Below, piece by piece: positions 108 to 60,233 of a DNA stretch of 64,000 nt (the first letter of the stretch is position 1; the number at the start of each line of letters is the position of its first letter). The notes beneath the pieces are model-generated. The model was not told the DNA's origin, made no database searches, and was given only the letters and a program-made list of their open reading frames with translations. This DNA is from Terriglobia bacterium. Lineage in GTDB: Bacteria > Acidobacteriota > Terriglobia > 20CM-2-55-15. The DNA lies in the NCBI GenBank assembly GCA_965218585.1, contig CBDCLE010000023.1:1-64000 (forward strand), read 5' to 3'. The position numbers and the translations under genes are program-made.

Positions 108-909
108 CTATTCGTCGGAATGAAACTTTGCGGGACGTTTGTTTCGGATGGCGTCAACGCCCTCCAGCAAATCCTTGCCAAAGAAGCCCATCATTTCCAG
201 GGCCAGTGAATGATCGAAAATCGGAGCCGCCTGGAGCAACCATTGGTTGAGCGCGCGCTTCGTGAACCTGTTGGCGTCGGTGGGTCCAGTCGCAACCTTG
301 GTCGCCACTTCCATGGCTTTGTCGAGTAACTCATCGTCCGGCGTGCACAGACTGACTAAATTCATCCGTTCGGCTTCAGGTCCAGTTATGAAGTCGCACG
401 TCAACAGGTAGTATTTGGCTTTCGCCATGCCGCACAACAGGGGCCAGATAATGGCACCGTGATCGCCTGCCGCTACTCCGAGACGGGTGTGCCCGTCGGC
501 CAACCGCGCGCTTTCTCCCATGATGCTGATGTCCGATAGCAGGGCCACCACCACTCCCGCACCGACCGCTACACCGTTAACGGCTGAGATGATCGGCTTC
601 GAGCAGTGGAGCATGTTGTAGACGATGTTTCGCGCTTCGTCCAGAATCGCAACGATCTCCTCATAGTCGCCGTGGGACTCTTTGACGCGCTTCAGATCAC
701 CACCCGCGGAAAAGGCTCTCCCCCGCACCCGTGATCACCGCTACGCGTACTTCAGGATCGCGGTCTATCATCGGCCAGAGGTCCACAAAAGCCTGATGCA
801 TGGCAGCATCGGCCATGTTCAGTTTGTCGGGCTTGTTGAGTGTGATCCAGAGGATGCCGTTGTCCCGGCGTTCAAAGAGAATGTCTTTAAAAACAGAATA
901 ATCCATCAA
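108..909 (-). CDS. Crotonase/enoyl-CoA hydratase family protein (one apparent frameshift near 720)
   Basis: ORF 697..909 (ITLNKPDKLN...VAVITGAG) joins ORF 108..728 (RAFSAGGD...KPIISAVNGVAVGAG) if one G is removed from the G run at ~720-724. Confidence 0.9.
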
Positions 910-921
910 GATTTCCTTCTA

Positions 922-2607
922 TCAAACGACCTGGCTGGGGTTATACACGCCGTACACCTCACGGAGCGAGGCGCAGATCTCACCGATGGTGGCATAGGCT
1001 TTGACACTTTCGACCAACACAGGAATGAGATTATCCTTTGCTCGCGCAGCGTCGGTCAGGTCGTGGAGAGTTTGATTGAGTAGAGCGTCATCGCGTTTCT
1101 GCCGAAGTGCTTCGAGCTTCGTAATCTGTTTCCGCTGGGTCTCCGGATTGGCCTTGAAAACAGGAATCTCTTCCCTGCCTTCGCTCTGATACTCGTTGTG
1201 ACCCACAAGTATCCGTTCCTTGTTTTCGATCTGACGCTGGTAGCTGTACGCGGCATCGGACAGCGCACGATGGTAGTAGCCGTTCTCGATGCAATCGACA
1301 GCCCCACCCTGCGCGTCGATCTTTTCCAGATACTGATAAACCTCTGCCTCAATCGAATCGGTCAGCGACTCGATGGCGTAAGACCCTCCCAGGGCATCCG
1401 CCGTCCCCGTGATGCCCGACTCGTGCGCAACGATCTGCTGCGTTCGCAGGGCGATGGTCGCAGCCTCCTGGGTCGGAATGGCATAGGCTTCGTCATACGA
1501 GGAAGTCGCGATGGTCTGCACACCGCCCAACGCTGCCGCCAGGGTTTCGATAGCCACGCGGGCGATGTTGTTCAGTGGTTGCTGAGCGACGAGGTTGCCG
1601 CCCAGGGTGTAGGCAAAGATCTTGAGCTTCATCGTTTCGGGATTTCGTGCTCCGTAGCGCTCCCGCATAAGCTTGGCCCAGACTCGCCGACCCGCGCGGA
1701 ACTTGGCGACCTCTTCGAGGACGTCGATCCCGGCGGAGAGAAACGTCCATATCTGCCCGGCGAAATCGTCGATCTTGAGGCCGCGGGCGAGGACTTCATC
1801 CACATATGCCAGGCCGTTGGCGAACGTAAATGCCAGTTCCTGGGCCGCAGTGCTTCCGCTGTCGCGGATGTGATACCCACTCATCGCCAGAGGCGTCCAC
1901 GCAGGCAGATTGCGGCCGCAATACTCGATGACGTCGGACGACAGCTTGAGCCCGGCTTGGGGTGGAAAAATGTCAGTGCCCCGCGCGAAGTACTCCTTGA
2001 GCACGTCGTTTTGAAGGAACATACGGGTGTTGCTGATGTCGACGCCCTTCTTCTCGAACGCCGCGATATACATCGCGGCGATTATCGGACCGATCGAGTT
2101 CGCCGTAGTCCGGATCTGGCGTACTTTTTCGAGGGGAATGCCTTCAAAAAGCCGCTCCATATCGTCGAGGGAGCCGATATGAACTCCGGTGACACCCACC
2201 TCACCGGGAGCCCTCGGATCATCGGCGTTGTATCCAAGTTGAGTGGGGAGATCCAGGGCAATGGAAAAACCGGTCTGGCCTCTTTCGAGTAAGGCCCGGT
2301 AGCGCTCGTTGGCCTCTTCGGCCGAGCCGAAGCCGGAATACATGCCCATAACCCAGAAGTCGCCACGATACATCGTCGGGCTGACGCCACGGGTGTACGG
2401 GTAGGAACCGGGGTAACCCAGTTTTTCCTTCAGCGCTTCTGGAGCCGGGGAGCCGTTCGGCGACGAGTCCTCTGCGGTGTACGCCCGCTCCATCGACTTT
2501 CCGGAAATCGTCTTGAATTCGGTCTTCCGCTCGGGTTCAGCCTCGAGATGAGGCTCTACGATCCTGGATTCCCAATCGGCTTTGCTGTTTACATCCTGAT
2601 CAGACAT
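922..2607 (-). CDS. Methylmalonyl-CoA-mutase-family substrate-binding (large) subunit, divergent
   Basis: YPYTRG..TMY, GQTGFSIALDLPTQLG, QNDVLKEY.AR, SGYHIR and DEA motifs; no C-terminal DxHxxG B12 domain. Confidence 0.93.
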   Translation of the reverse strand: MSDQDVNSKADWESRIVEPHLEAEPERKTEFKTISGKSMERAYTAEDSSPNGSPAPEALKEKLGYPGSYPYTRGVSPTMYRGDFWVMGMYSGFGSAEEANERYRALLERGQTGFSIALDLPTQLGYNADDPRAPGEVGVTGVHIGSLDDMERLFEGIPLEKVRQIRTTANSIGPIIAAMYIAAFEKKGVDISNTRMFLQNDVLKEYFARGTDIFPPQAGLKLSSDVIEYCGRNLPAWTPLAMSGYHIRDSGSTAAQELAFTFANGLAYVDEVLARGLKIDDFAGQIWTFLSAGIDVLEEVAKFRAGRRVWAKLMRERYGARNPETMKLKIFAYTLGGNLVAQQPLNNIARVAIETLAAALGGVQTIATSSYDEAYAIPTQEAATIALRTQQIVAHESGITGTADALGGSYAIESLTDSIEAEVYQYLEKIDAQGGAVDCIENGYYHRALSDAAYSYQRQIENKERILVGHNEYQSEGREEIPVFKANPETQRKQITKLEALRQKRDDALLNQTLHDLTDAARAKDNLIPVLVESVKAYATIGEICASLREVYGVYNPSQVV

Positions 2608-2616
2608 TTCTCTTTC

Positions 2617-3837
2617 TCAGGCTGCTACCTTCACGATGACGGATTCGGCCTCACCGATGCCGCCACAGATGGTCACCAGGCCGTAGAACGGACGGTCCTC
2701 ATCGGAGGCCTGCTGACGTCGACGAAGTTCATGAATCAGCGTTGTGATCAGCCGGCCACCGGTAGCACCTGTCGGGTGACCAATGGCAATCGCGCCGCCG
2801 TTGACGTTGGTCTTGGCCCGGATCTCCTCGGCCTTTTCCTTATCGCGACCCGCCATGATCAGGGTTGAAACCAGAGGCACTGCGGCAAAAGCCTCGTTGA
2901 TCTCGATCAGGTCGATGTCGTCAATCGTCATGCCTGCCTTCTCCAGGGCAAGGCGGGCGCCTTCTGCTGGAATTGATGCAATCTTGTCGGGATGACCGGA
3001 GGCCATCGCCCACGCGACCAGGTTGGCCAACGGTTTCTTACCTCTCTTCTCCGCTTCTTCAGGCGACATCAACACCAGCGCAGAAGCGCCCGTGCTGAGC
3101 CCCGGAGCGTTCCCCGGAGTAACGGTTGGGCTGCCGTAAATTGTCCTGAGCTTGGCCAGTCTCTCAATCGTTGTGTCCGCCCTGGGAGATTCGTCGTCGG
3201 TAACGATGAGCGGATCACCCTTCCGTTGCGGCACTTCGATCGACATCAATTCGTCCTGGAAGTGGCAGGCTTCCTTGGCTTTGAAGTAATTCTGGTGACT
3301 CCGGAGCGCCCAGGCGTCCTGCTCCTCTCGGTTGACATCGAATTCGACGGCTTCTTCACCCGCCTGTAGTGCGCGGGGTCGGCCCGTCATGGGGCAGGCA
3401 ATGATCAACTGATCCTTCAGATTGATATCCCCCAGCCTGTTCCCCCAACGCAGATCGGTCAGGAAATAAGGAACCTTGCTCATGTTCTCAACGCCGCCGG
3501 CCAGCGTCACTTTGGCCTCTCCAAGCCGGATCGAACGGGAACCCATGTTGACGGCGGCCATCGACGAGCAGCAGGCCCGGTCCACCGTATAAGCCACCCG
3601 GTTGGGCGGGATGCCGGACTCGATCAGAACCTGGCGGGCGATCGAACGGTCCGCGCCCGGCAGGTTGACGCCCGTTGCGACCTCTTCGACGTCCTCCCCC
3701 TCGATACCGGCACGACGAATGGCTTCGGCCATGACCATGCCACCGAGCTGGGGCAAACTGAAATCTTTCAGAGCACCGCCGAACTTGCCGAACGGGCTGC
3801 GGACTGCGCTGATGACTGCAACTTCTTCCTGACTCAC
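2617..3837 (-). CDS. Thiolase (acetyl-CoA acyltransferase family)
   Basis: RSPFGKFGG, RACCSS (nucleophile Cys), EINEAF, NGGAIAIGHP, C-terminal TICGGIG. Confidence 0.93.
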   Translation of the reverse strand: MSQEEVAVISAVRSPFGKFGGALKDFSLPQLGGMVMAEAIRRAGIEGEDVEEVATGVNLPGADRSIARQVLIESGIPPNRVAYTVDRACCSSMAAVNMGSRSIRLGEAKVTLAGGVENMSKVPYFLTDLRWGNRLGDINLKDQLIIACPMTGRPRALQAGEEAVEFDVNREEQDAWALRSHQNYFKAKEACHFQDELMSIEVPQRKGDPLIVTDDESPRADTTIERLAKLRTIYGSPTVTPGNAPGLSTGASALVLMSPEEAEKRGKKPLANLVAWAMASGHPDKIASIPAEGARLALEKAGMTIDDIDLIEINEAFAAVPLVSTLIMAGRDKEKAEEIRAKTNVNGGAIAIGHPTGATGGRLITTLIHELRRRQQASDEDRPFYGLVTICGGIGEAESVIVKVAA

Positions 3838-3880: not shown

Positions 3881-5101
3881 CTAGATAATTGACTGCTGCT
3901 TCAACTCGTCCACCTGGTCCTCGGTGTAGCCCAGTTGCTCGGTCAGGATCTGGGCGTTGTGCTGGCCCAATTGCGGGGCAGCTTCGGTTCGAGGTTCCGG
4001 ATTCGCGGACAACTTGGCCACTGGGCCGACGAGCTTGACTGAACCCAGGATGGGATCCGGCACGTCGATCATCAGCTTCCGCGCATCAACGTGAGGGTCA
4101 TCATAAATGTCCTGAGCGTTCTGCACCGGACCCACGGGCAGGCCAGCGGCCAGCAACTTCTCTGTAGCTTCAGCTCGCGTCTGAGGGGCGAACCATCCGC
4201 TGATGATCTCGCCCAGCCAGCCGGACATGTTTCCTGCACGCTCGGGACCGGAAGTCGTTCCTTCATGCCCGACCAGATCGGGCCTCTCGATCGCCTCGCA
4301 GAACTTACCCCAATCCCGCTCGGTTGCAACGATCAGACCGACATATCCATCCTTGCACTCGAACGGCCCCCAGGGCGCCATGTACGGTTCGCGACCCCTT
4401 GAAAGAGTGGTTCCAGCCAGCGAATAAGCCGAAACCGAACGCTCAGCCAGACCGATGATCGTGTCGTACATCGCAACGTCGATGTACTGACCCTTGCCAG
4501 TGTCCTTGCGTTGGTAGAGTGCCAGCATGATGGCGTAAGCGGCATTCATCCCGGACACGATGTCCCCTAGTGCTGCGCCGAGCCACGTTGGGGGACCATC
4601 TGCCTGGCCGCAGGTGTGCATCATTCCACCCATCGCCTGGGCCACGATGTCGTATGCCGGTCGCTTGCTGTAGGGACCAAGGTAGCCGTCCAGGCTCCCG
4701 AAACCGGAAATGCACGTGTAAATGAGGCCGGGATTCAGCTCGGAAAGGGCTTTGTAGCCGATTCCCATGTCATCGAGCAGGCCGGGCCGGAAGTTTTCGA
4801 CAACGACATCCGACTTGCTGGCCAACTCGCGGAAGAGCTCTCGACCCTTATCGCTCTTGAGGTTGAGCGTCAGACTCTGCTTGTTGCGATTAAATCGGAG
4901 GAAGTAACCACTCTGGACATCGCCGTCGTCGTTCTTGAGTTTCGGCGCGCCACCCCGAGCAGTGTCACCGCCCTGGGGGCGTTCCACTTTGACAACGTTC
5001 GCACCTCGATCCGCCAACATCATGGTGCAATAGGGACCAGCCACCTGGATTTCAAAACTCAGTACTTTTATACCGTCAAGGGGTCTACTGGGACGACTCA
5101 C
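3881..5101 (-). CDS. Family III (CaiB/BaiF) CoA-transferase
   Basis: PLDGIKVL, AGPYCTMMLAD, KVERP.GGD, NRNKQS, DVVVENFRPG, SGFG..GPY, ALGD (catalytic Asp), APQLGQHN. Confidence 0.93.
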   Translation of the reverse strand: MSRPSRPLDGIKVLSFEIQVAGPYCTMMLADRGANVVKVERPQGGDTARGGAPKLKNDDGDVQSGYFLRFNRNKQSLTLNLKSDKGRELFRELASKSDVVVENFRPGLLDDMGIGYKALSELNPGLIYTCISGFGSLDGYLGPYSKRPAYDIVAQAMGGMMHTCGQADGPPTWLGAALGDIVSGMNAAYAIMLALYQRKDTGKGQYIDVAMYDTIIGLAERSVSAYSLAGTTLSRGREPYMAPWGPFECKDGYVGLIVATERDWGKFCEAIERPDLVGHEGTTSGPERAGNMSGWLGEIISGWFAPQTRAEATEKLLAAGLPVGPVQNAQDIYDDPHVDARKLMIDVPDPILGSVKLVGPVAKLSANPEPRTEAAPQLGQHNAQILTEQLGYTEDQVDELKQQSII

Positions 5102-5428
5102 TATTTCCTCCAGGATTGGGAGAGAAGGTCAAGAAGAGGTAAACAGAAGGAATCGACTTTATAATATTTCCCTCCGCAACGCAAGTCACGCACCTGTTTG
5201 AACTTCTGCCACTTTTGGCATCGGCCAGATGTCACTTTCCAATCAGAAATCGCTGCAGGTTAATGAAGAATTTTCACCGGCGGGAGCCAATCCTCATCAC
5301 GACTTTTTTGATTCCGAGGCTCCATAGTCCTTTATTATAGCTCTTTGAGTGCGGCTCTTGCCGAGGGTGGTGTCCTTCCTGATCGGCCTCAAGACGTTAA
5401 GCACTATTTTCCCGGAGATGGTCGAATT

Positions 5429-5830
5429 ATGACGAACGAGAAGATCCGCGTTGTCGTTGCCAAGCCAGGCCTCGACGGTCATGACCGCGGTGCCAAGGTG
5501 ATCGCCCGGGCCTTTCGTGATGCCGGCTTCGAGGTGATCTACACGGGACTGAGGCAGACACCTGAGCAAATTGTCAACGCTGCGCTGCAGGAAGACGCTG
5601 ATGTCATTGGAATTTCAGTCCTTTCGGGAGCACATATGACGCTTTGCCCCCGGATTACGGAACTCATGGCGAAGGAAGGTCTCGATGACGTCATGGTCGT
5701 GGTCGGCGGCATCATCCCGGATCAGGACATCGAGGAACTGAAAAAGTGTGGCGTGTCCGAAGTCTTTCAGCCCGGAGCCAACACGCAGGACATCGTGGTG
5801 TACGTGAAGGAGAACGTACGTCAGAAATGA
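5429..5830 (+). CDS. Stand-alone cobalamin-binding subunit of an acyl-CoA mutase
   Basis: [21 protein letters not shown] and VGGIIP motifs; ATG at 5429 with GGAG upstream. Confidence 0.93.
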
Positions 5831-5908
5831 GAAGGACCGGATCACGTTATCTCCTTTCACCAGCCGCTCTTAACCCCGCGCTAGACTAGGTAACCCCAGA
5901 ATCTCTCA

Positions 5909-6562
5909 ATGCGCTATGCCCTGGTACCGGTGAAGGAATTGACCCAGGCGAAGGAGCGACTGGCTCCCCTCCTCTCGCCCGATGAGCGCCAGGCACTGGC
6001 AGCAGCCATGCTCAGTGACGTACTCTCGGTCCTGGAGCAGGTCCCCCGACTCGATCGCATCGCCATCGTGACGCGGGACGCCCACGCAATATCCCTGTCA
6101 GAAGAAAGGGGGTTCGAACTGGTCGATGAAGGTTCCGGAGAGGGATTGACCGAAGCTGTCGAATTGGCCGTCCAGGTCTGCATGGAGCGGGGTGCAAGTT
6201 CGCTTGCGGTCATTCCCGGCGATATCCCCTTGTTGCGGCCGGAAGACATCGATCGCGTCATAGAGCAGGGAACGGACCACGAAGTCGTCATCGTGCCGTC
6301 ATGGAACAGCCGCGGCACCAACACGGTTCTCCTGCGGCCTCCCGACGTTCTTGGTTTGCGCTTCGGCTCCTGGAGCTTCTATCCCCACGTCAAGCAAGCC
6401 AAGCGGGCCGGGCTCGCCTACAAGGTACTGCGCCTGCCGCGGATCGGGTCCGACGTTGACACACCGGAAGACCTGGCTCGCCTGATGCCCAGGGCCCAGG
6501 GAACGCGCACTTATGCGGCCCTCGAAGAAATGGAATTGCTGACCAGAATAGAGGCGATATAG
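5909..6562 (+). CDS. cofC: 2-phospho-L-lactate/PEP guanylyltransferase (F420 biosynthesis)
   Basis: LVPVK...AKERLAP.L, AMLSDVL, GDIP, GTN, DVDTPEDL; adjacent to cofE. Confidence 0.9.
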   Translation: MRYALVPVKELTQAKERLAPLLSPDERQALAAAMLSDVLSVLEQVPRLDRIAIVTRDAHAISLSEERGFELVDEGSGEGLTEAVELAVQVCMERGASSLAVIPGDIPLLRPEDIDRVIEQGTDHEVVIVPSWNSRGTNTVLLRPPDVLGLRFGSWSFYPHVKQAKRAGLAYKVLRLPRIGSDVDTPEDLARLMPRAQGTRTYAALEEMELLTRIEAI

Positions 6563-6571
6563 ACGGGCACG

Positions 6572-7324
6572 ATGTCATCGGAAATGCACATTATTGGATT
6601 GCAGGGACTACCGGACGTCGAACCGGGATTGGATCTGGGGGCGGCCATCACCGAAGCGGCCCAGGCTCAAAACCTTGTCCTGGCCGCTGACGACATACTG
6701 GTCGTCACACATAAGATCGTGTCGAAGGCTGAGGGCCGGTTAGTGGACCTGGGAACGGTCACGCCATCGCCTTTTGCCGAACAGATTGCCGAGTCATATG
6801 ACAAAGACCCGCGGGTGGTCGAGGTTGTTCTTAGCGAAAGCAGACGCATCGTGAAAATGGACCACGGGACGATTATCTCGGAGACACACCACGGTCTGGT
6901 GTGCGCCAACGCGGGTGTCGACGAGTCGAACCTCGCGGAGGAGACCGTGGCATTGCTGCCTGAAGACGCCGATCGGTCGGCAGACCAGCTCCGGGATTCT
7001 ATTGAAAGACATGCCCGGATTCGACCCGCCATCATCATCTCGGATACCTTCGGTCGCCCCTGGCGCGACGGGCTGGTAGATGTCGCTATCGGCGTTGCAG
7101 GCCTGGAACCGATGAAAGACTATCGCGACCAGGCGGATACCGAGGGTCGGATCATGAAAGTGACTGCTGTAGCCATTGCAGACGAATTAGCGGCGGCGGC
7201 GGAGTTGGTGATGGGAAAGCTGGACAGGGTTCCCGTGGCCGTTGTGCGGGGATATGCCTACGAACCGGGAGACGGAGGGGCTAGCAAGCTTATTCGACCA
7301 CCCGAAAAGGACCTGTTTCGATAG
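6572..7324 (+). CDS. cofE: Coenzyme F420-0:L-glutamate ligase
   Basis: KIVSKAEGR, CANAGVDESN, ISDTFGRPWR.G, ADELA.AA.LVMGK, DLFR end; no fused nitroreductase domain. Confidence 0.95.
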   Translation: MSSEMHIIGLQGLPDVEPGLDLGAAITEAAQAQNLVLAADDILVVTHKIVSKAEGRLVDLGTVTPSPFAEQIAESYDKDPRVVEVVLSESRRIVKMDHGTIISETHHGLVCANAGVDESNLAEETVALLPEDADRSADQLRDSIERHARIRPAIIISDTFGRPWRDGLVDVAIGVAGLEPMKDYRDQADTEGRIMKVTAVAIADELAAAAELVMGKLDRVPVAVVRGYAYEPGDGGASKLIRPPEKDLFR

Positions 7325-7362
7325 ATAGATCTGTTTTGAAAAGTTAGAAGGAGGAACCAGAA

Positions 7363-8016
7363 GTGAAGATCGCGATTTTGGGTGGAACCGGAGAACAGGG
7401 GCCTGGGCTGGCGCTGCGCTGGGCGAAGGCGGGAGAAGAAATCATCATCGGGTCACGCACCAGTGAGAAAGCTGAGAAAGTCGCTGCAGAATTGAATGCG
7501 GAACAACCGGGCGCCGGAATCATCGGGATGGCGAACGCCGAGGCGGCCGAAGCCGCCGAGATCGTCGTCCTGACAGTCCCCTATTCGGCACACCTGAAGA
7601 CCTTGGAAGGCGTCAAACAACAGGTCCAAGGCAAGATCTTCATCGACGTTTCCGTCCCCCTCGATCCTGACAACCCACGTCACATGAAGATGCCCGCGGC
7701 GGGTTCGGCTACCGAAGAAGCACAGGCGTTCCTGGGACCGGAAACGAAGGTCGTCGCAGCGTTCCAGAACGTCGCAGCTCACCTGTTACGCGACCCGAAC
7801 CACCCGATCGACTGCGATGTACTGATCTGTGGCGACGACAAGGAAGCACGTAAAACGGTCCGGGAACTGGTCGCCAAGATGGGCTTTAAGGTCCACGATG
7901 TGGGTACGGCCGACAGCGCACGCGTGGTCGAAGGCATGACTTCGATTCTGGTTCGCCTTAATATTCGAAACAAAGTGAAGGCCGGAGGAATCCGACTGAC
8001 AGGGCTCCCCGAATAG
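7363..8016 (+). CDS. npdG: NADPH-dependent F420 reductase (FNO)
   Basis: MKIAILGGTGEQG.GLALRWA, IGSR, VVAAFQNV, C-terminal GIRLTG. Confidence 0.93.
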   Translation: MKIAILGGTGEQGPGLALRWAKAGEEIIIGSRTSEKAEKVAAELNAEQPGAGIIGMANAEAAEAAEIVVLTVPYSAHLKTLEGVKQQVQGKIFIDVSVPLDPDNPRHMKMPAAGSATEEAQAFLGPETKVVAAFQNVAAHLLRDPNHPIDCDVLICGDDKEARKTVRELVAKMGFKVHDVGTADSARVVEGMTSILVRLNIRNKVKAGGIRLTGLPE

Positions 8017-13086: not shown

Positions 13087-14316
13087 TTATTGGAGGCCCA
13101 GGTTGAACGCGGCCAGGGTATCGCCGTTTCGAAGATAGAGAATGCCGTCTACAAGCGCCGGGTAGGCCCGCACAGTCTCGGGAAGAAGCTGGGCCCGTGC
13201 CAGGGGCTGGAACCCCTCGGGCGATGCCTGGGCCAATACCAGTTCGCCTCTCTCCCGCAGGATCAACACATGGTCGCCTGCAAGAATAACGCTTCCCGCA
13301 CGAAACTGTTCTACGCTCCAGGCTACCTCACCGGTTTCAAAATGGATGGCCCGGAGGCTGGGACCAAACTCCTGACGGCCATGATATCCATACAGGTAGC
13401 CGTCGTGGTAGACGCTGGTCGCGTAGTGGTTCGTGAGCACATCATTGGAAACCCACAGCGGGCTGAGTTGCTCTCCGTCCCATCGCAGCACACCGGCGCC
13501 GGGCCCGTACTCGGCTGAAACGAAGATGAGATCCTCGACAACGATCGGCGATGCCGCGTTTATCGAAGACGCCGAACGCGAACGCCACCTTTGGTTGAAC
13601 GCCACTTCTCCGTTTCGAGGATCGAGTCCAATCAAACCGTTGCGCGTCAGAAAGATCGCGTAACGGCGTCCCGAGATGTTGACGCTGACGGGAGACGAAT
13701 AACTGGCCCCATCCTCAGTCGCCGTCCAGAGAACCTCCCCGGTAGCCGCGTCGAACGCCACGATCCCAGCATCGGGGCCTCCGATGTTCGCGATGACCCT
13801 CCCATCCTCGACCAAAGGGGACCCGCCTGCGCCAAAAAACCCCTTTGAAACGTCAAAGCGGTCCATGGTGTCATGGCTCCAAATTCTTCGTCCGGTTTCA
13901 AGTTCGACAGCATGCAGCTGTCCCTGGGCTCCGAACGTGTAGACGACGCCGTCCACGATAACCGGGACGGCCCGGGGTCCTTCGTCGAATCCAAAATCAT
14001 CGCGATAGGATGTAGGATAACTGTAGTCCCACAGACTTGTCCCGGTCTCCGGATCGAAGGCTTCGACAACCTCACGATTCGAGACACGATGGAACAGGAT
14101 GAGGCGGCCATCGGAAACAACGGGCCCACTGAAACCTTCACCGACGTCCTGCTCCCAGACCAAAGGAGGGCCGTCCTCTCCCCACGCTTCGGCCAGTGGC
14201 GAGCCTCTATAGACACCGTTGCGCTCCGGACCGAAGAACTGCGGCCAGTCCTGGGCGGCGCATTCAATGCCCATGGCGAGGAAAACGACTGCCAGAGGGG
14301 CCATCACTCTTTGCAT
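13087..14316 (-). CDS. PQQ-binding-like (BamB-type) beta-propeller protein
   Basis: Signal peptide; DWPQFFGPERNG; repeated A.D..TG...W motifs; SYSSP. Confidence 0.88.
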   Translation of the reverse strand: MQRVMAPLAVVFLAMGIECAAQDWPQFFGPERNGVYRGSPLAEAWGEDGPPLVWEQDVGEGFSGPVVSDGRLILFHRVSNREVVEAFDPETGTSLWDYSYPTSYRDDFGFDEGPRAVPVIVDGVVYTFGAQGQLHAVELETGRRIWSHDTMDRFDVSKGFFGAGGSPLVEDGRVIANIGGPDAGIVAFDAATGEVLWTATEDGASYSSPVSVNISGRRYAIFLTRNGLIGLDPRNGEVAFNQRWRSRSASSINAASPIVVEDLIFVSAEYGPGAGVLRWDGEQLSPLWVSNDVLTNHYATSVYHDGYLYGYHGRQEFGPSLRAIHFETGEVAWSVEQFRAGSVILAGDHVLILRERGELVLAQASPEGFQPLARAQLLPETVRAYPALVDGILYLRNGDTLAAFNLGLQ

Positions 14317-14377
14317 TTCCGTTGTTCCTTCCAATGAGAACGCGATGTGCGCTCATAGAGCGCACTACAGAAGAATC

Positions 14378-15652
14378 CTACTTAGAGACTGCCTTGGCCC
14401 GAGGCTCGTAGCGGAACTGCTTCGATCCGGCCAGCTTGGAATAGGAGCCAAAGCGCTCCTCTGCGTCTTCGATAAGATCGAGCGGCGTAGCCTCGTCGTC
14501 GCCGTCCTCATATACGTGCAACAATTTGTAGTTCGTCTTTCTCTGGGCGGGGATCCGTCCTGCGTCGCGAATCAGACGGCGAAGTTCCCGGGGTTGGACC
14601 AGCTGTCCGTATTGCGCTCCAGCCGAGGTGGAAATGCTCTCGTTCATCAGAGTCCCGCCGACATCGTTCGCACCCGCCGCAAGCAGGTACTGGGCGAACT
14701 TCGGTCCCTCCTTCACCCACGATGACTGAAGATTCGGTATAGAAGCTCCCAGCATCAGCCGGGCAAGGGCATGTAGTTTGACCACTTCCATCCCGCTCGG
14801 GCCGGGACGCAGGTTCGGAAGCAGACGATGTTGATACATCGGAGCTTCCTCAGAGATCATTGACAGAGGCACAAACTCGGTGATTCCACCCGTCTGACGC
14901 TGGATGTCCCTCAACAGGTCCATGTGTTTTACCCAGTGAACAGGCGTCTCGATGTGGCCGTACATGATCGTCGAGGTCGTGGGAATGTCGAGGCTGTGGG
15001 CCGTAGTAATGACTTCAACCCACTCGTTCACTGTGATACGGCCCGGAGAAATGGCGTCACGCACCTCCTGATCCAGAATCTCGGCCGATGTGCCCGGAAG
15101 CGATCCCAACCCCGCCTCTTTCAGCGCCTTGAGATAATCCTCGATCGACGTGCCCGAACGCGTTGAGCCGTACAGCACTTCCTCGGGCGAAAACGCGTGT
15201 ATATGGACGTCGGGAACCGCTTTCTTCACTTCGCGTGTGAGGTCGATGTAGAGGTTACCGTCCATATCGGGCGGCATACCCGCCTGCAGGCAAACCTCTG
15301 TCGCCCCCATATCCACTGCTTCGAGTGTCCGCCGGATGATTTCCTCGGAATTGAGAAGATAGCCCTCTTCGTTACGGTATGTTCGGCTGAAGGCGCAGAA
15401 GCCGCAGTGCTTCACACACACGTTGGTGAAGTTGATATTGCGGTTGATGACATAGGTCACCGTGTCGCCGACCTGAAGCTTCCTCAGCTGGTCGGCCGCA
15501 AAAACCATCGCGTGAAAGTCCGCTCCGTTGGTTTCCGACAACTGCAGTGCTTCGGATACCGAAATCTCCTCACCTTCCAGCGCCCGGGACAGAATCCGGT
15601 GGATGTTGGGATCTATGTTGCCGGGAAGTGAAGGCAGTGTCTCTGGTGTCAT
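14378..15652 (-). CDS. cofH: FO synthase subunit CofH (radical SAM)
   Basis: NRNINFTNVCVKHCGFCAF, SLPGTSAEIL, TTSTIMYGH, QSSWVK.G, GGTLMNESIS. Confidence 0.93.
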   Translation of the reverse strand: MTPETLPSLPGNIDPNIHRILSRALEGEEISVSEALQLSETNGADFHAMVFAADQLRKLQVGDTVTYVINRNINFTNVCVKHCGFCAFSRTYRNEEGYLLNSEEIIRRTLEAVDMGATEVCLQAGMPPDMDGNLYIDLTREVKKAVPDVHIHAFSPEEVLYGSTRSGTSIEDYLKALKEAGLGSLPGTSAEILDQEVRDAISPGRITVNEWVEVITTAHSLDIPTTSTIMYGHIETPVHWVKHMDLLRDIQRQTGGITEFVPLSMISEEAPMYQHRLLPNLRPGPSGMEVVKLHALARLMLGASIPNLQSSWVKEGPKFAQYLLAAGANDVGGTLMNESISTSAGAQYGQLVQPRELRRLIRDAGRIPAQRKTNYKLLHVYEDGDDEATPLDLIEDAEERFGSYSKLAGSKQFRYEPRAKAVSK

Positions 15653-15664
15653 CGTGTTCCTCGT

Positions 15665-16816
15665 CTATGCAATTGCTGTTTGAAGATTCGAAACTATCGG
15701 TTCGAGCCGGGTCGGGAGAAAACCGGGGCGTTCGATGTACTCATCATAGATCGCCAGTCGTTCCGAGAGCGTATAGCCCTCTTCCCGGCAAGTTTCCCGA
15801 AGCGTGCGAATATGCGGCCAAGCGGCTTCGGGATTGACGTAGTCCTGGGTCACCGGAGAAATTCCGCCCCAGTCGTTGATGCCTGCACGGAGTAGAAGCC
15901 GATGGTCGTCAGGATTCAGGTTTGGCGGAACCTGGAGGTTCATCGCCCCGCCCAGAATCAGGCGCCCTACGGCAACGGCTTTCGCCACCTCGAGGCCATC
16001 GGGTTCAGGAAACTCTTCCATGCGCGTGTCGGGCTTGGCACGGAAATTCTGGATTATGACTTCCTGGATGTGGCCGTACCTCTCGTGAAGATCACGAATG
16101 GCAATGAGGCTATCGACGATCTCTTCGACGGTTTCTCCAATCCCGATAAGAATTCCTGTCGTGAACGCTATCGACAGCTCCCCCGCCTCACGAATCATCT
16201 GCAAACGTACGTCCGGATGCTTGTCCGGTGCCGAAAAGTGAGGCATGCCTTTCATCGTGAGTCTGGGGCTGACATTCTCGAGCATCAAGCCGAGGCTGGC
16301 GTTCACCGGCTTGAGGAGTTCCATTTGCTGGTACGTGAGCACACCCGCGTTTGTGTGGGGCAGAAATCCATGCCCAACTGCTATTTCACAAGCCTCGAAG
16401 ACATATTCGACTGTCGTCTCATGTCCGAAATCCGCAAGGGTCTCCCGATAATGTGGATAGGCCGCTTCCGGTCTGTCGCCCAGGCACATCAGGGCTTCTT
16501 TGCAACCCTGCGCGCTTCCCGATCGCAGCGTATGACGAATGTCGTCCGGGGTCATCGTCCATGCGTCCGGGTCGGTCGGATCCTTCCGGAAGGTGCAGTA
16601 CGAACAACGATCCCGGCACAGGTTCGTCACCGGGAGAAATACCTTTCGGGAATAGGTCACGGTCCTGCCCTTCGATCGGTCCCGCAGACGGCCGGCGGCT
16701 TCGATCACCGAGTAGACCTGGGAACCTTTCGAGTGGATCAGGTCATAACCCTCTCCGGCGGAGAGGGACTCACCGTCGAGAGCCTTTCGCAGAATCGCGT
16801 CTATCTTCAGGGGCAT
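15665..16816 (-). CDS. cofG: FO synthase subunit CofG (radical SAM)
   Basis: TYSRKVFLPVTNLCRDRCSYCTF, LPHTNAG, TTGILIGIGE, QEVIIQNF, QVPPNL, DWGGISP. Confidence 0.94.
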   Translation of the reverse strand: MPLKIDAILRKALDGESLSAGEGYDLIHSKGSQVYSVIEAAGRLRDRSKGRTVTYSRKVFLPVTNLCRDRCSYCTFRKDPTDPDAWTMTPDDIRHTLRSGSAQGCKEALMCLGDRPEAAYPHYRETLADFGHETTVEYVFEACEIAVGHGFLPHTNAGVLTYQQMELLKPVNASLGLMLENVSPRLTMKGMPHFSAPDKHPDVRLQMIREAGELSIAFTTGILIGIGETVEEIVDSLIAIRDLHERYGHIQEVIIQNFRAKPDTRMEEFPEPDGLEVAKAVAVGRLILGGAMNLQVPPNLNPDDHRLLLRAGINDWGGISPVTQDYVNPEAAWPHIRTLRETCREEGYTLSERLAIYDEYIERPGFLPTRLEPIVSNLQTAIA

Positions 16817-16916
16817 CTGGCTATTTTACACGGTAATGCCGGAGCGGCGACAGGTGGGTCGGACAGTCAGAGGGGAGGTCTACTCGTCTCGCGAAACGTT
16901 CTGGCTTGGTCCTGAA

Positions 16917-17010
16917 GGGCTTGCGATCAGGATGATCGCGAGCGTCGCCCTGCTTTCACATAGAAGACTCAGACAGGATGTCTGAAGAACGACCGAGCGA
17001 AATCTTCTCC
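16917..17010 (+). repeat. Double-hairpin AGGAT-loop repeat, copy A
   Basis: GGGCTTGCGATC-AGGAT-GATCGCGAGCGTCGCC...TCAGAC-AGGAT-GTCTGAAGAACGACCGAGCGAAATCTTCTCC. Confidence 0.85.
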
Positions 17011-17020
17011 CGACCCCCAC

Positions 17021-17974
17021 CTAAGCCTTTCCGAACTTCGAGTTACCGACGATCTTTTCCACAATCGAGTAGGGATCCTGCTTGCGTTCTGCAATCTCTT
17101 TAATGAGCTGATCCAGGTCTCCATCAGGGAACACTTCATCGACGGCAGCCGCCACAAGTCTCTCCTGTAACTGGGTCATCAGGCGTTGCCGGGCGGCATC
17201 CCGCTTCTTCTGTGTTCGGATCTTCGAATCTTCGAAAACCTGTCTGCACTCCTCGATTCGTTCGACCAGTTCGGTGGTTCCTTCTCCGGTGGTCGCCACG
17301 GTCTTGACGATCGGGGGATTCCAGTCATCCGGGCGGTGGGCCAGGGAGAGCATGGCGCCAATCGCGCTCTCGATCTTGTCGACACCGGGATGATCGGACT
17401 TGTTGATCACGAAGATATCGCCGATTTCCATAAGGCCGGCCTTGATCGCCTGAACGTCGTCTCCCATACCCGGAACCAGGACGACCACCGAAATATCCGC
17501 CAACTTTACGATCTCGATCTCATCCTGACCCACACCGACAGTTTCGACGATGATCGGGTCGCGACCCGCCGCATCCAGAACTGTGACTACATCAGCAGTC
17601 GTCGATGCCAGACCGCCCAGGTTACCGCGAGTCGCCATACTGCGAATGTAGATCCCCGGATCGACACCCAGAGTCTGCATCCGAATCCGATCACCGAGAA
17701 TTGCGCCGCCCGTGAAAGGGCTGCTCGGATCGACAGCCACAATCCCCACGCTTTTGTCGCTCTGCCTGTAATCGATCGCCAATCGATCCACCAGTGAACT
17801 CTTCCCCGCTCCCGGACTGCCGGTCACACCGATCACCTGAGACTGCCCGGTCTTGGGGAACAGCGCTTTAAGAATCTCCAGGCTGTCCGGGGATCGGTTT
17901 TCGACCCGTGTGATCGCCCGGGCCAAGGCCCGTATGTCACCGCTAAGGACTTCTTTTAGAAGTGAGTTATCCAT
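17021..17974 (-). CDS. meaB: Mutase-associated GTPase MeaB/ArgK (copy 1)
   Basis: GVTGSPGAGKS, AVDPSSPFTGGAILGDRIRM, ETVGVGQ, NKSD. Confidence 0.93.
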   Translation of the reverse strand: MDNSLLKEVLSGDIRALARAITRVENRSPDSLEILKALFPKTGQSQVIGVTGSPGAGKSSLVDRLAIDYRQSDKSVGIVAVDPSSPFTGGAILGDRIRMQTLGVDPGIYIRSMATRGNLGGLASTTADVVTVLDAAGRDPIIVETVGVGQDEIEIVKLADISVVVLVPGMGDDVQAIKAGLMEIGDIFVINKSDHPGVDKIESAIGAMLSLAHRPDDWNPPIVKTVATTGEGTTELVERIEECRQVFEDSKIRTQKKRDAARQRLMTQLQERLVAAAVDEVFPDGDLDQLIKEIAERKQDPYSIVEKIVGNSKFGKA

Positions 17975-18150
17975 CAGTGGCTTAGTTCTCGTTGGTAATT
18001 TCCATCAATGGCATTGTATCGCAGCCACGACCAGCGGAACCGAAACCCGCTGGTGGGAAATTCAGGACAGACCCCTGTTTCCAAAAAACGAAAGAGTTGC
18101 TTACGGAAAGAGGGATCTGTCCCTGGAATTTCCCGTAAAATACACCGCCT

Positions 18151-18552
18151 ATGACCGAAGTACGACTGCAAACCCACTGGCCCGATTGCGATCCCGCCGG
18201 GATCGTCTATTTCGCAAACTTTTTCCGCTTTGTGGGCATCGCCGAGGAAGAGATGTTCCTTCTCGCCAACAAGCGACGTCAGAAGATACTCGATGACCAC
18301 GACATCTGGATGCCCCGGGTGGAAACCCACGCGAAGTTCATCAGACCGATTCAGAGTGGATCGGCGATTCGAATACGCATGGACCCGCAGTTCAAAGGCT
18401 CAAAGACCGTGCGCTTCGAGTTTGAGGTTATCGACGACGAGACAGAGGCATTGTTTGCAACCGGCTTTTTGACGGTGGTCTGCGTGGATCGGGAAACGTT
18501 CAAAGCCAAACCGATACCGGAAGAAATTAAAAACATCTTGAGTGGAAAGTAA
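18151..18552 (+). CDS. Acyl-CoA thioesterase (4HBT/YbgC hotdog fold)
   Basis: W.DCDPAGIVYFANFF motif. Confidence 0.85.
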   Translation: MTEVRLQTHWPDCDPAGIVYFANFFRFVGIAEEEMFLLANKRRQKILDDHDIWMPRVETHAKFIRPIQSGSAIRIRMDPQFKGSKTVRFEFEVIDDETEALFATGFLTVVCVDRETFKAKPIPEEIKNILSGK

Positions 18553-18666
18553 CTTCTTAGCGCGCCGACGCCTCGGCTCCGCGTCTTTATTTGAAAGCGG
18601 TCCACCCGCACCGGCGGACCGGCGCGGGTCCTCCTCTACCTGCTTCAAAATTCCCCTGATCCAATT

Positions 18667-18748
18667 GGCCTCTCCATCATCCTGATGGAGAGGGTCGCCG
18701 GTCGTTCGGCCAGGATGGCCGATTGAACGACCGAGCGAAATCTTCTCC
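18667..18748 (+). repeat. Double-hairpin AGGAT-loop repeat, copy B
   Basis: GGCCTCTCCATC-ATCCT-GATGGAGAGGGTCGCCGGTCGTTCGGCC-AGGAT-GGCCGATTGAACGACCGAGCGAAATCTTCTCC. Confidence 0.88.
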
Positions 18749-18802
18749 AGTGAGCATTTGACTAATCCCAACTTTCCCAACACTAATCATGAATAGACAC
18801 GC

Positions 18803-18838
18803 AAAAAAGCCGGTACCCGCTTTATAGCAGGTACCGGC
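18803..18838 (-). terminator. Intrinsic terminator of the LLM gene
   Basis: Minus strand GCCGGTACCTGC-TATAAA-GCGGGTACCGGC-TTTTTT. Confidence 0.8.
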
Positions 18839-18859
18839 CCATAAGACTGTGCGATTAGT

Positions 18860-19786
18860 TTACTTAATGTGAGGCAACACGTCCTTGGCAAACCATTCGA
18901 TCTTCTCTCGACGCTCCGGCCAACGGCCTTTCATGAACTGAAGCGCGATGTGCTTCACGCCGATGTCCTTGAACTTGTTGATCGACTCGATCAACTGTTC
19001 GGGCGTACCCTCGAAGACATCATCCTGCTGGTCTACCGGATCCTTGGTAATCTCAACCGGACGGCAGCAGCAAAGGTCAACCTGACCCTCCCTGCCGAGC
19101 TCGGCAGCGGCTTTCTGAACCCTGCTGTACTTGGCAGCCAGATCCTCGGCCGAGATCTTCACGTGGTAAGAGAACCATGCATCACCATACTTGGCCGCGC
19201 GGTTGACCGCAGCTTCACTCTCTCCACCCGTCCAGATCGGGAAACGGGGATCCTGAACCGGTCTGGGACTGACCGACAGCGGTTCGAAATCGTAATGTTT
19301 TCCGTGGTAACTCGGCTTGTCCGATTTCCAGAGGGTATTGAAGATCTCGAGCTGCTCGTTACCCATCGCGCCCCTCTTTTTGAAAGGCACACCCAGGGCG
19401 TTGAATTCCTCGATCATCCAGCCGATTCCGGCTCCAAGGATGAGCCGACCGTTTGAAAGCGTATCGATGGATGTCGCGACGCGGGCCGTATAGAGCGGAT
19501 GGCGAAACGGCAAAACGGCTACGCTGATACCCAGTTTGACCTTCTTGGTCACTCCGGACAGGAAAGCCAGGCAGGTCAGCGGCTCAAGAAACGGAACGTC
19601 AGGTGGAACGAACCACTGTGAGTTGTCCTTATAGGGGTAGGCCGTTTCCATTAGCCATGGATTCACAAGGCGTTCTGCTGCCCAGACCGAATCGTAGCCT
19701 GCGTTCTCGGCCTGCTGGGCAGCGTCGGTCAAAACTTCAGGAACCGCGGCGCGGCCAGAGACTGGGAGAAAGACTCCAACTTCCAT
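18860..19786 (-). CDS. LLM-class, probably F420-dependent, oxidoreductase
   Basis: AE.AGYDSVW, EPLTCLAFL, LPFRHP, ID.LS.GRLILGAGIGW..EF, PIWTGG; cof genes nearby. Confidence 0.87.
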   Translation of the reverse strand: MEVGVFLPVSGRAAVPEVLTDAAQQAENAGYDSVWAAERLVNPWLMETAYPYKDNSQWFVPPDVPFLEPLTCLAFLSGVTKKVKLGISVAVLPFRHPLYTARVATSIDTLSNGRLILGAGIGWMIEEFNALGVPFKKRGAMGNEQLEIFNTLWKSDKPSYHGKHYDFEPLSVSPRPVQDPRFPIWTGGESEAAVNRAAKYGDAWFSYHVKISAEDLAAKYSRVQKAAAELGREGQVDLCCCRPVEITKDPVDQQDDVFEGTPEQLIESINKFKDIGVKHIALQFMKGRWPERREKIEWFAKDVLPHIK

Positions 19787-25955: not shown

Positions 25956-26945
25956 ATGTCGTCACCCGATGCCAACAAGCTCGCCCAAACCGTCCTCGGC
26001 GGGGATCGCCGAGCCCTCGCCCAAGCCATTACCCTGATCGAATCTACCCGCCCTGAAGATCGTCAAGGGGCCCATGTCCTTCTGGAAATACTCGTTCCGA
26101 AAGCAGGTCAGTCGATTCGAATCGGTATTTCGGGTGCCCCGGGTGTCGGAAAATCTACCTTCATTGAAAGCCTTGGAAACTACCTGATCGGTGAAGGCCA
26201 CAAGGTTGCTGTCCTCGCAGTCGATCCCTCTTCGGCCCTCAGCGGAGGATCGATACTCGGCGACAAGACGCGGATGGAACTGTTGTCACGAAAGCCGGAA
26301 GCTTTTATCCGGCCGTCTCCCTCCGGAACGACGTTGGGAGGAGTCACGCGGCGAACCCGGGAAACGATGCTCGTCGCCGAAGCTGCTGGTTTCGACGTGT
26401 TGCTCATCGAAACCGTCGGCGTCGGACAGTCCGAAACCGCCGTCGCCCAAATGACTGATATGTTCATCCTGATGCTGTTGCCGGGAGGCGGGGATGACCT
26501 GCAGGGAATCAAGAGGGGCATCGTTGAACTGGCGGACTTGATCCTGGTCAACAAGTCCGATGGCGACATGCAGCCGGTTGCCGAACGCTCGGTCACCGAC
26601 TATCGAAACGGATTGCACTTCTTGCGTCCGCGCAGTGAGCACTGGCAAGTGCCGGTGGAGGGCTATTCGGCGATCGAGGGTTCAGCTACTCCCCGGGTGT
26701 GGGAGATTGTAGAGCAATACCAGAAGGCGCTGGTCGACGCAGGTGAGATCGAACGAAAACGTGAGGATCAGGCAAGGGCGTGGATGTGGAGCGAGGTCAC
26801 CGATGAATTGCTCGATGAGCTCAAGGACGATCCCGACGTGAAGGGAAAGATCGCCGAGCTCGAGCGGAGGGTCACAGAAGGCAGTTTGTCACCGACTGTG
26901 GCCGCACAGGAATTGATCGCCGCTTTCCTGAAGCGAGATAGCTGA
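25956..26945 (+). CDS. meaB: Mutase-associated GTPase MeaB (copy 2)
   Basis: GAPGVGKST, GGSILGDKTRM, ETVGVGQSE, NKSD. Confidence 0.94.
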   Translation: MSSPDANKLAQTVLGGDRRALAQAITLIESTRPEDRQGAHVLLEILVPKAGQSIRIGISGAPGVGKSTFIESLGNYLIGEGHKVAVLAVDPSSALSGGSILGDKTRMELLSRKPEAFIRPSPSGTTLGGVTRRTRETMLVAEAAGFDVLLIETVGVGQSETAVAQMTDMFILMLLPGGGDDLQGIKRGIVELADLILVNKSDGDMQPVAERSVTDYRNGLHFLRPRSEHWQVPVEGYSAIEGSATPRVWEIVEQYQKALVDAGEIERKREDQARAWMWSEVTDELLDELKDDPDVKGKIAELERRVTEGSLSPTVAAQELIAAFLKRDS

Positions 26946-28705: not shown

Positions 28706-28715
28706 TGGTCCATGG

Positions 28716-30179: not shown

Positions 30180-30209
30180 TACCTCTGCCTTCCGACCCTT
30201 CCCCCCAAC

Positions 30210-30292
30210 GGCTTGCAATCAGGATGATTGGGAGCGTCGCCGGGCTTCTTGCATTCAGACGTCCTGTCTGAATGCAAGATCAAGCGAAATCC
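30210..30292 (+). repeat. Double-hairpin AGGAT-loop repeat, copy E (divergent)
   Basis: GGCTTGCAATC-AGGAT-GATTGGGAGCGTCGCCGGGCTTCTTGCATTCAGAC-GTCCT-GTCTGAATGCAAGATCAAGCGAAATCCT. Confidence 0.8.
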
Positions 30293-30318
30293 TATTCTTG
30301 CGAGCCTAACTCAAGCCC

Positions 30319-32541: not shown

Positions 32542-32640
32542 AAGAATTTTCCTTCCGCAAAAGTGAAGAAACTCTGGGAATCGGAATAGCTAGAAAATAT
32601 ATCGTAGGTAGTTGAGGATTGGGCGAAATTCTGTCAAAAA

Positions 32641-33885: not shown

Positions 33886-33969
33886 CGCTGCACTCCTCCA
33901 GTTACGTTTGTCCCGAGCCTGGCACTGGCTATCCGGGGACGAGACGGCTAACATATTTCTCCGAACACC

Positions 33970-59656: not shown

Positions 59657-59676
59657 CAGGACCATCCTGAGGCCAG

Positions 59677-60078: not shown

Positions 60079-60233
60079 GGCCAGCCGGGCAATCCGCCAC
60101 CTCGAACGGGCGTTTTTCCCCCCAATACCCCTCCCCTATTGTTAGACTCACCGGAATCTCAACCTCTACTGTAGGTGCGCTCTATGAGCGCACAGTCAAA
60201 AGGACGAAGAGAAGTTCAACAGAAGGAGGCCGC

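Follow-up and report, generated by a model that had tools for sequence, protein, structure and literature searches.

To our knowledge, the established specificities of coenzyme B12-dependent mutases of the methylmalonyl-CoA mutase (MCM) fold are few: MCM, isobutyryl-CoA mutase (ICM)/IcmF, 2-hydroxyisobutyryl-CoA mutase (HCM)/RCM, ethylmalonyl-CoA mutase (ECM) and pivalyl-CoA mutase (PCM). The members that we compared, namely HcmA and sequences with MCM, ICM or HCM signatures, differ from one another in the acyl pocket and hold the channel for coenzyme A (CoA) constant. HcmAB of Aquincola tertiaricarbonis (PDB 4r3u) is split into a large subunit of ~560 residues and a small B12-binding subunit of ~135 residues, and in MutA (1req_B/D, 6oxc_B), the inactive β chain of heterodimeric MCM, the mutase-fold barrel is filled and binds no CoA. 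Here we describe P0001, which by its sequence is the catalytic subunit of a split adenosylcobalamin (AdoCbl)-dependent mutase from an uncharacterised branch of the MCM/ICM/HCM family, encoded in a 64,000-nucleotide stretch of a Terriglobia bacterium (contig CBDCLE010000023.1 of assembly GCA_965218585.1, positions 1 to 64,000; hereafter the window). P0001 keeps the acyl-pocket residues of MCM and replaces most of the residues that we take to contact CoA, and the replacements are fixed throughout its branch. The genes that surround it, conserved in relatives, argue that CoA is still the handle by which its substrate is held.

The large subunit and its barrel residues

The gene for P0001 and that for the MCM to which we compared it are as follows.

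922-2607, minus strand: mutase large (catalytic, TIM-barrel) subunit P0001, 561 residues, matching PF01642 and TIGR00641
20173-22389, plus strand: canonical fused MCM of the window

P0001 matches the PF01642 (MM_CoA_mutase) profile over the full length of the profile (positions 1-512 of 512; 606.9 bits against a cut-off of 22.1), and TIGR00641 reaches 596.2 bits against a cut-off of 303.8. The MCM equivalog NF006944, however, gives 490.4 for P0001, short of its cut-off of 876, compared with 1260.1 for the window's canonical MCM. In a BLASTP alignment the two proteins of the window share 202 of 545 residues (37%), which, with the full-length PF01642 match, agrees with the initial annotation of the gene as a paralog of canonical MCM. 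The closest relative of known structure is HcmA (4r3u; E 6.9e-136, 40% identity), whose N-terminal region aligns from residue 7 and whose split layout P0001 shares. An AlphaFold2 model of P0001 (predicted local distance difference test, pLDDT, 94.0; predicted template modeling score, pTM, 0.93) superposes in Foldseek with a template modeling (TM) score of 0.87 on 4r3u, 2xiq and 4req, the HcmA and MCM substrate complexes.

Two identities within the family, HCM and ICM/IcmF, could be rejected because the signature residues differ. In the alignment to 4r3u, HcmA has Ile and Gln at the positions of MCM Tyr89 and Arg207, and its Asp117 presumably contacts the hydroxyl group of its substrate, whereas P0001 has Tyr, Arg and Ala at the three positions. 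The Phe/Gln pair that we take to be the ICM pocket signature is likewise replaced by Tyr and Arg in P0001, the NF045497 score is 258.5 against a cut-off of 1500, and the IcmF chains in the PDB match P0001 at E 2e-61.

Residues were mapped through an HMMER alignment to Propionibacterium shermanii MCM (1req_A), in which the literature number is the SEQRES number plus 1, as checked on Tyr89, Arg207 and His244; below, the MCM residue stands first and that of P0001 second. The kept residues are Y89 (Y90), Q197 (Q199), R207 (R209) and Y243/H244 (Y245/H246), together with S114 (S115), M78 (M79), Q361 (Q364) and the D369-E-A motif. The replacements begin near strand 1 (Y75>S76, R82>D83, T85>V86 and R87>G88) and continue in the region of strands 3 and 4 (S162>R163, S164>I165, M165>R166 and T195>F197), where the register around β3 (163-167) is uncertain by one residue, as HMMER and MAFFT place an indel differently. 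They extend further to S239>A241, R283>Q285, S285>W287 and R326>K329 and, toward the C-terminal side, to H328>F331, Q330>Y333, H364>A367 and N366>S369. Additional fixed changes are F117>L, N208>G and Q88>M, and W334 is replaced by G. Thus, relative to the MCMs that we compared (that of the window, human 2xij and P. shermanii 1req), P0001 has the same fold and identical Y89, Q197, R207, Y243, H244 and DEA residues, but it is only 34-37% identical, is split rather than fused and has at least 16 barrel or lid residues replaced.

The initial annotation had listed seven motif changes, and all are visible in the BLASTP alignment to the canonical MCM: GRPWTVRQY>GDFWVMGMY, SVSMT>QIRTT, GTLQ>MFLQ, FNSVS>WTPLA, PRLSFF>GQIWTF, LRTHCQ>LKIFAY and QSLHTN>QTIATS. 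The same alignment confirms that the Tyr of RQY and the LQND..R, SGYH and DEA motifs are kept, as had been stated. Seven of the eight barrel strands of the AlphaFold2 model (86-88, 164-168, 196-199, 240-243, 286-292, 329-334 and 365-367) carry the replaced residues or have them no more than two residues away; the eighth strand (113-116) bears the kept S115, and S76 and D83 are located in the segment preceding strand 1.

Nine residues of P. shermanii MCM are, as we take it, its CoA contacts: Y75, M78, R82, T85, R87, S114, T195, R283 and S285. P0001 keeps only M78 and S114 and carries S, D, V, G, F, Q and W at the other seven, so the proposed loss of the CoA-contact residues stands insofar as that list of contacts holds. 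The changes in side-chain size go both ways. Larger residues are introduced by S>W, T>F, S>I and H>F, and smaller ones by R87>G, Y75>S, W334>G and H364>A. Strand 3 in addition gains two arginines, R163 (in 118 of 120 relatives) and R166 (in all 120), and the TRG..TMY lid segment ahead of strand 1 is still conserved in P0001. Because the changes run in both directions and new arginines appear on strand 3, the residue pattern makes a shifted CoA path at least as plausible as a closed tunnel.

Conservation and phylogeny of the P0001 branch

The closest branch contains at least 120 clusters at 90% identity, with relatives that are 72-100% identical to P0001. Those that are named are proteins from metagenome-assembled genomes (MAGs) of Acidobacteria, Anaerolineae and Chloroflexota, and they are annotated merely as methylmalonyl-CoA mutase (family). 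All 120 relatives have G at R87, M at Q88, F at T195, W at S285, F at H328, R at M165, A at S239 and A at H364; 119 have Y at Q330, K at R326 and S at N366 and keep Y89; 118 have R at S162 and 116 have Q at R283. Q197, R207, Y243 and H244 are kept in every one. The initial annotation had raised the possibility that the substitutions might be unconserved in homologs and reflect decay. We rejected decay, and with it pseudogene status for P0001, because each replacement is fixed in 116-120 of the 120 relatives.

To place the branch we used a FastTree phylogeny of 226 sequences, comprising thinned close relatives, representatives at 50% identity, the mutases of 80 loci fetched from a genome scan and the window's MCM. 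The branch of P0001 groups with the mutase of an Alkalihalobacillus MAG (L002; 59% identity) with support of 0.997, and both belong to a 30-member clade with support of 0.958. This clade includes a second group that is actinobacterial (Stackebrandtia, Planktophila, Solirubrobacteraceae and others) and a third composed of Natronosporangium, Acidimicrobiia and the protein P0128. IQ-TREE, run on 87 of the 226 sequences, recovers the same split, 22 versus 65, with a Shimodaira-Hasegawa-like approximate likelihood ratio test value (SH-aLRT) of 99. The clade spans Acidobacteria-type, Chloroflexota, Actinomycetota and Bacillota genomes.

Every one of the 30 clade members has Gly at R87, Phe at H328 and Arg at M165, an aromatic residue at both S285 and Q330, and Phe, Leu or Met at T195, and all 30 keep Y89, Q197, R207 and H244. 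Outside a wider 49-member clade (n = 177), the MCM residue is the usual one: Arg at R87 occurs in 153 sequences, Thr at T195 in 148, Ser at S285 in 131, His at H328 in 128 and Gln at Q330 in 123. All five channel residues occur together in 103 of the 177 when either Ser or Ala is counted at S285. Pockets of ICM-like or HCM-like type (F or I at Y89 and Q at R207, the ICM signature being our assumption) go with unchanged channel residues. Because the ICM- and HCM-like sequences vary the pocket and keep the channel, while the clade does the opposite, the alignments indicate that the clade inverts the usual family pattern and combines a constant acyl pocket with a rebuilt channel. As judged from its sequences, it is a branch of MCM-fold B12 mutases with an unusual and conserved redesign of the CoA channel.

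No solved or named protein was found inside the P0001 clade in searches of the PDB and of protein and structure databases, and a search of the ESM Atlas returned generic mutase clusters only. The initial annotation had named nesting within a characterised clade as counting against its proposal: P0001 falls in no characterised or solved group, its best PDB relative being HcmA at 40% identity, and it scores below the MCM equivalog cut-off. Plasmid records gave 434 matches to P0001, every one below 60% identity, and the top plasmid match (Brevibacillus) is a canonical split MCM accompanied by an epimerase and a carboxyltransferase. No account of a mutase branch that carries this residue pattern emerged from a literature search, although a text search cannot detect a sequence clade and its silence is weak evidence.

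Operon, B12 partners and linkage in other genomes

The genes in the window that bear on the function of P0001 are as follows.

3881-5101, minus strand: family III (CaiB/BaiF) CoA-transferase, first gene of the operon (PF02515, 391.1 bits)
2617-3837, minus strand: thiolase of 406 residues, ending 9 bp upstream of the mutase start (Thiolase_N and Thiolase_C; TIGR01930, 372 against a cut-off of 240.55)
108-906, minus strand: crotonase-fold (enoyl-CoA hydratase/isomerase family) gene, last in the operon (ECH_1; NF005595, 326.4 against a cut-off of 292)
5429-5830, plus strand: B12-binding small subunit, 133 residues from ATG 5429, divergent from the operon (PF02310, 106.6 bits; TIGR00640, 189.7 against a cut-off of 57.45)
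17021-17974, minus strand: MeaB-type G-protein chaperone (PF03308, 312 bits; TIGR00750, 344.2 against a cut-off of 240.75)

The operon on the minus strand runs from the transferase through the thiolase and the mutase to the crotonase-fold gene, with gaps of 43, 9 and 15 bp. The best NCBIfam match of the transferase is succinyl-CoA:mesaconate CoA-transferase (326.7, below the cut-off of 700), and among solved chains it is closest to formyl-CoA transferase and succinate-hydroxymethylglutarate CoA-transferase, whose substrates are formyl/oxalyl and glutarate/HMG-type dicarboxylates; the thiolase is closest to short-chain acetoacetyl-CoA thiolases. These nearest relatives hint at a small (C5-C7) substrate. 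In the crotonase-fold gene, the ECH_1 match lies in the open reading frame (ORF) at 108-728 and covers profile positions 50-249. The N-terminal part is in another frame, which reads from ATG 906 to ...VITGAGE and then a stop, with AFSAGGDLK... onward from 716. Judged from the reading frames, the break is either an assembly error or the mark of a pseudogene. Two other genes of the window are also broken, a TonB-dependent receptor (CarboxypepD_reg, Plug and barrel) that is spread across at least three frames at 33952-37173 on the plus strand and an arylsulfotransferase across two frames at 59646-61782 on the plus strand. Three broken genes in 64 kb suggest that the breaks reflect assembly indel errors rather than biology.

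A canonical propionate module is located ~15 kb further on from the operon and the small-subunit gene and consists of the fused MCM, the β and α subunits of propionyl-CoA carboxylase (PCC) and a second MeaB (25956-26945). Unlike canonical MCM, P0001 has no epimerase or carboxylase beside it, either in the window operon or in the related locus L001 described below. A search of the window against Rfam revealed no cobalamin riboswitch and no other Rfam family.

The small subunit, whose mechanically called ORF begins at TTG 5345, contains a DxHxxG-type loop (G14 L15 D16 G17 H18 D19 R20 G21) that is invariant in 45 sequences. Relatives of the small subunit that are 86-98% identical occur on contigs matching in size those of the mutase relatives in six cases, three of them on contigs of 12-55 kb. 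A predicted complex of the large and small subunits, in which CoA was included but unscored, gave a score of 0.66, compared with 0.00 for the best of three controls; of 80 solved complexes 58 attain the mark used for this score, as do 2 of 110 mismatched pairs. Contact agreement between runs was at least 87%, and the pLDDT of the partner was at least 85. In the complex model, loop 14-21 of the small subunit touches residues 120-140, 209-211 and 249-251 of the large subunit. Because like complexes (HcmAB and MCM) are solved, this result shows likeness to them and may come from the predictor's memory of them, and it is silent on CoA. Within the clade, P0128 consists of an N-terminal B12-binding domain fused to the mutase domain. 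Taken together, the fold match, this fusion, the DxHxxG loop and the linkage to the small subunit make it most likely that P0001 is still a B12 enzyme.

Of the two MeaB proteins, that encoded at 17021-17974 is 44-49% identical to the MeaBs found beside split-type mutases in five of the scanned loci (L018, L025, L028, L034 and L076), while that at 25956-26945, behind the fused MCM, is only 33-41% identical to them. The former thus probably serves to load B12 into the split mutase. The accessory mutase genes are interleaved with genes for coenzyme F420. On the plus strand (5429-8016), genes for CofC, CofE and an NADPH-dependent F420 reductase come after that for the small subunit, and on the minus strand (14378-19786) those for MeaB, CofG and CofH come after that for an F420-dependent LLM oxidoreductase.

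The genome scan that supplied the 80 loci used a generic QNDVLKEY-type pattern and brought mostly canonical split MCMs; among the matches listed, only L001 and L002 are close relatives of P0001. L001, from Anaerolineales, encodes a mutase 75% identical to P0001, then a thiolase, CoA_transf_3 and a second thiolase, and the transferase and second thiolase are 77.1% and 76.9% identical to those of the window. Directly upstream of the L001 mutase, at 4418-7744 on the plus strand, are 2-oxoacid dehydrogenase E1-β and E2 genes, preceded by a 366-residue ORF that may be E1-α, and an AtuA-family gene follows the second thiolase; neither the dehydrogenase genes nor the AtuA-family gene adjoin the operon of the window. 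Among 120 listed relatives of the transferase, 17 lie on longest contigs equal in size to the contigs of listed mutase relatives, which suggests a shared contig. Thirteen of these 17 pairs involve contigs of 5.9-97 kb, for which chance equality of size is negligible; an 18th match (2,046 bp) was left out as too short for both genes.

The rebuilt barrel is found in 11 of the 80 loci, and the other 69 have Arg at R87, many with an adjoining small subunit and MeaB. In 9 of the 11 (L002, L003, L009, L011, L012, L016, L023, L026 and L029) the mutase gene is directly abutted or overlapped by one for an AMP-forming acyl-CoA ligase, and an ADP-forming acyl-CoA synthetase is encoded just upstream of the mutase in 5 (L011, L016, L023, L026 and L029). 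The ligase-adjoining loci include streamlined freshwater Planktophila genomes. In L006 a thiolase that is 56% identical to that of the window lies directly downstream of the mutase.

Elsewhere in the window, a 613-residue ORF at 56897-58738 on the plus strand has an integrase core (rve) domain and is a possible transposase. Six ORFs for PQQ-like/BamB-like β-propellers are located at 13087-14334, 28001-33954 and 55753-56817, the four at 28001-33954 being consecutive on the minus strand.

Substrate, mechanism and competing explanations

Collectively, the data make P0001 probably an AdoCbl-dependent acyl-CoA mutase with a new specificity. Its function would be distinct from that of MCM: a canonical MCM, accompanied by PCC and MeaB, is encoded separately in the window, and P0001 falls short of the MCM equivalog. 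The substrate is most likely a carboxylate-bearing, differently substituted acyl-CoA that reaches the barrel by a re-routed CoA path. The initial annotation had instead proposed a free carboxylate or another non-CoA substrate. That proposal is unsupported and conflicts with the gene context, because the neighbors, with their conserved linkage, are enzymes that handle CoA esters (CoA-transferase, thiolase and ligases).

In the mechanism that we propose, the family III CoA-transferase would load an organic acid onto CoA to make the CoA ester on which the mutase acts, and the holoenzyme would consist of the large subunit, the 133-residue B12-binding subunit and probably the MeaB encoded at 17021-17974. 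A 5′-deoxyadenosyl radical would take a hydrogen from the substrate, and the thioester carbonyl would move to the neighboring carbon as in MCM. Arg209 and Tyr90 (MCM Arg207 and Tyr89) would grip a carboxylate or a similarly polar oxo group, and His246 and Gln199 would hold the thioester. The substrate would then be a substituted ester of the succinyl-CoA or methylmalonyl-CoA type, not methylmalonyl-CoA itself. The hydrophobic and aromatic residues V86, I165, F197, W287, F331 and Y333, on strands 1, 3, 4, 6 and 7, and the space freed by R87>G would give the channel a new shape to suit a different and probably bulkier or more hydrophobic substituent, and the same residues would send the pantetheine arm along another path. 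The product could then be carried on to acetyl-CoA-level units by the crotonase-fold enzyme and the thiolase.

Two described pathways follow a similar logic. The family III phenylsuccinyl-CoA transferase IaaL is paired with the proposed phenylsuccinyl/benzylmalonyl-CoA mutase IaaGH in Aromatoleum aromaticum, where the substrate is (amino)phenylsuccinyl-CoA (PMC8360864), and the ligase AssK is paired with the putative mutase McmLS, proposed to act on (1-methylalkyl)succinyl-CoA in anaerobic alkane degradation (PMC6776118). As in the window, a mutase stands with a dedicated CoA-activating enzyme and is followed by steps of the β-oxidation type, and the substrates retain the succinyl carboxylate and carry a hydrophobic substituent. 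The likeness to P0001 is one of pathway logic only, an analogy rather than a sign that IaaGH or McmLS belongs to the clade. The window contains no glycyl-radical or indoleacetate genes. Two candidate reactions were considered and not adopted, a 4-oxoacyl-CoA mutase converting levulinyl-CoA to 2-methylacetoacetyl-CoA, which would feed the thiolase directly, and a glutaryl-CoA/methylsuccinyl-CoA mutase, prompted by the likeness of the transferase to succinate-hydroxymethylglutarate CoA-transferase. Both would fit the minimal trio of transferase, mutase and thiolase. A literature search on levulinyl-CoA and B12 mutases found no paper with levulinyl-CoA.

Several observations weigh against an acyl-CoA substrate or against parts of this scheme. 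Seven of 13 MCM residues that we take to contact the substrate or CoA are replaced in P0001, several by far larger side chains. The sequences of characterised type in our sample, by contrast, keep the presumed CoA contacts, and HcmA retains Y75, R82, T85, R87 and R283, all of which P0001 replaces. The neighboring genes establish only the processing of CoA esters in the vicinity and not their binding by the mutase, and no particular substrate can be named from them. The crotonase-fold gene to which a step is assigned is frameshifted, with the break near 717-720 in a run of G. The contig matching is indirect in that it compares contig sizes and not contig identities. Moreover, the 11 clade loci of other genomes, covered over 3.9-17.7 kb each, show no B12 small subunit, and linkage to it is seen in the closest relatives only.

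Of the alternatives to a new acyl-CoA specificity, the one that survives best, though we regard it as unlikely, is that P0001 is a second MCM isozyme, interconverting succinyl-CoA and methylmalonyl-CoA with a channel that has drifted, and that it serves with the transferase in a succinate/propionate shunt, to which the scpA-scpB-scpC operon of Escherichia coli is a loose parallel. The methylmalonyl-binding residues Y89, Q197, R207, Y243 and H244 are indeed all kept, and the operon includes a relative of dicarboxylate-type CoA-transferases and a crotonase-fold gene that could encode a decarboxylase. However, a canonical MCM is already present in the window together with PCC and MeaB, NF006944 reaches only 490 against 876, and neither an epimerase nor a carboxylase gene stands beside the mutase gene here or in L001. 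The fixed changes H328>F, Q330>Y, T195>F, F117>L and N208>G would, in addition, alter the upper layers of the barrel, and H328 and Q330 are positions that vary in ECM-like sequences, a label taken from their signatures and B12 fusions.

Somewhat less probable still is a carbon-skeleton mutase that acts on a free dicarboxylate, on an acyl-adenylate delivered by a ligase or on an ester of another carrier, with the tunnel filled or turned into a hydrophobic pocket. It would account for the replacement of all seven presumed contacts beside fixed acyl-pocket residues, for the now invariant F, W, F, Y and I at formerly polar tunnel positions, and for the combination of constant pocket and altered tunnel in all 30 members of a clade that contains no characterised or solved protein, the opposite of what ICM- and HCM-like sequences show. 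Extended to the whole clade, this idea would mean that the CoA handle has been abandoned and that the Arg/Tyr/His/Gln pocket grips a succinyl- or methylmalonyl-like head group, which we consider doubtful. It is no less speculative that the Phe/Trp/Phe/Tyr/Ile tunnel would then hold the hydrophobic tail of a free substituted succinate or the adenine of a ligase-delivered acyl-adenylate. The synteny with CoA-transferase and thiolase is conserved, acyl-CoA ligases and ADP-forming acyl-CoA synthetases adjoin the mutase in the sister groups, and the TRG..TMY lid segment is retained, all of which point to CoA. The invariant new arginines on strand 3 and shrunken residues such as R87>G allow a shifted CoA path, and on general chemical grounds the migration of a free carboxylate is less favorable than that of a thioester carbonyl.

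A non-catalytic structural or regulatory subunit like MutA is highly improbable: the bulkier barrel interior and the loss of the basic CoA contacts resemble MutA as we know it, but the catalytic residues and DEA, which MutA lacks, are kept and invariant, for which reason an inactive MCM β subunit was rejected (TIGR00642 also scores 167 against a cut-off of 617.25), the MutA chains match P0001 weakly (E 3.3e-22 and 3.7e-21, where HcmA reaches 6.9e-136), the window's canonical MCM is of the fused homodimer type with its own B12 domain, and one clade member is fused to a B12-binding domain while P0001 has its own small subunit.

If P0001 is an acyl-CoA mutase of new specificity, as we consider probable, identification of its substrate would bring to light a new radical rearrangement, along with a catabolic route that probably breaks down some substituted dicarboxylic or oxo acid that is common in soils and waters. 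The clade is abundant, as the number of clusters in its closest branch alone indicates, and it would show how far CoA recognition can be re-engineered within the mutase fold, which is relevant to mutase design. Were the far less probable non-CoA alternative true across the clade, it would be the first case of a B12 mutase of the MCM fold that works on a substrate without CoA. Much of the mutase family appears, from its sequences, to be functionally unassigned, and the P0001 clade is one entry into this largely unexplored enzyme space. The representatives at 50% identity (P0121-P0270) contain dozens of combinations of acyl-pocket and channel residues, most of them seen once, and include fusions of the mutase to a glyoxalase-fold domain (P0130) and to MeaB (P0186).

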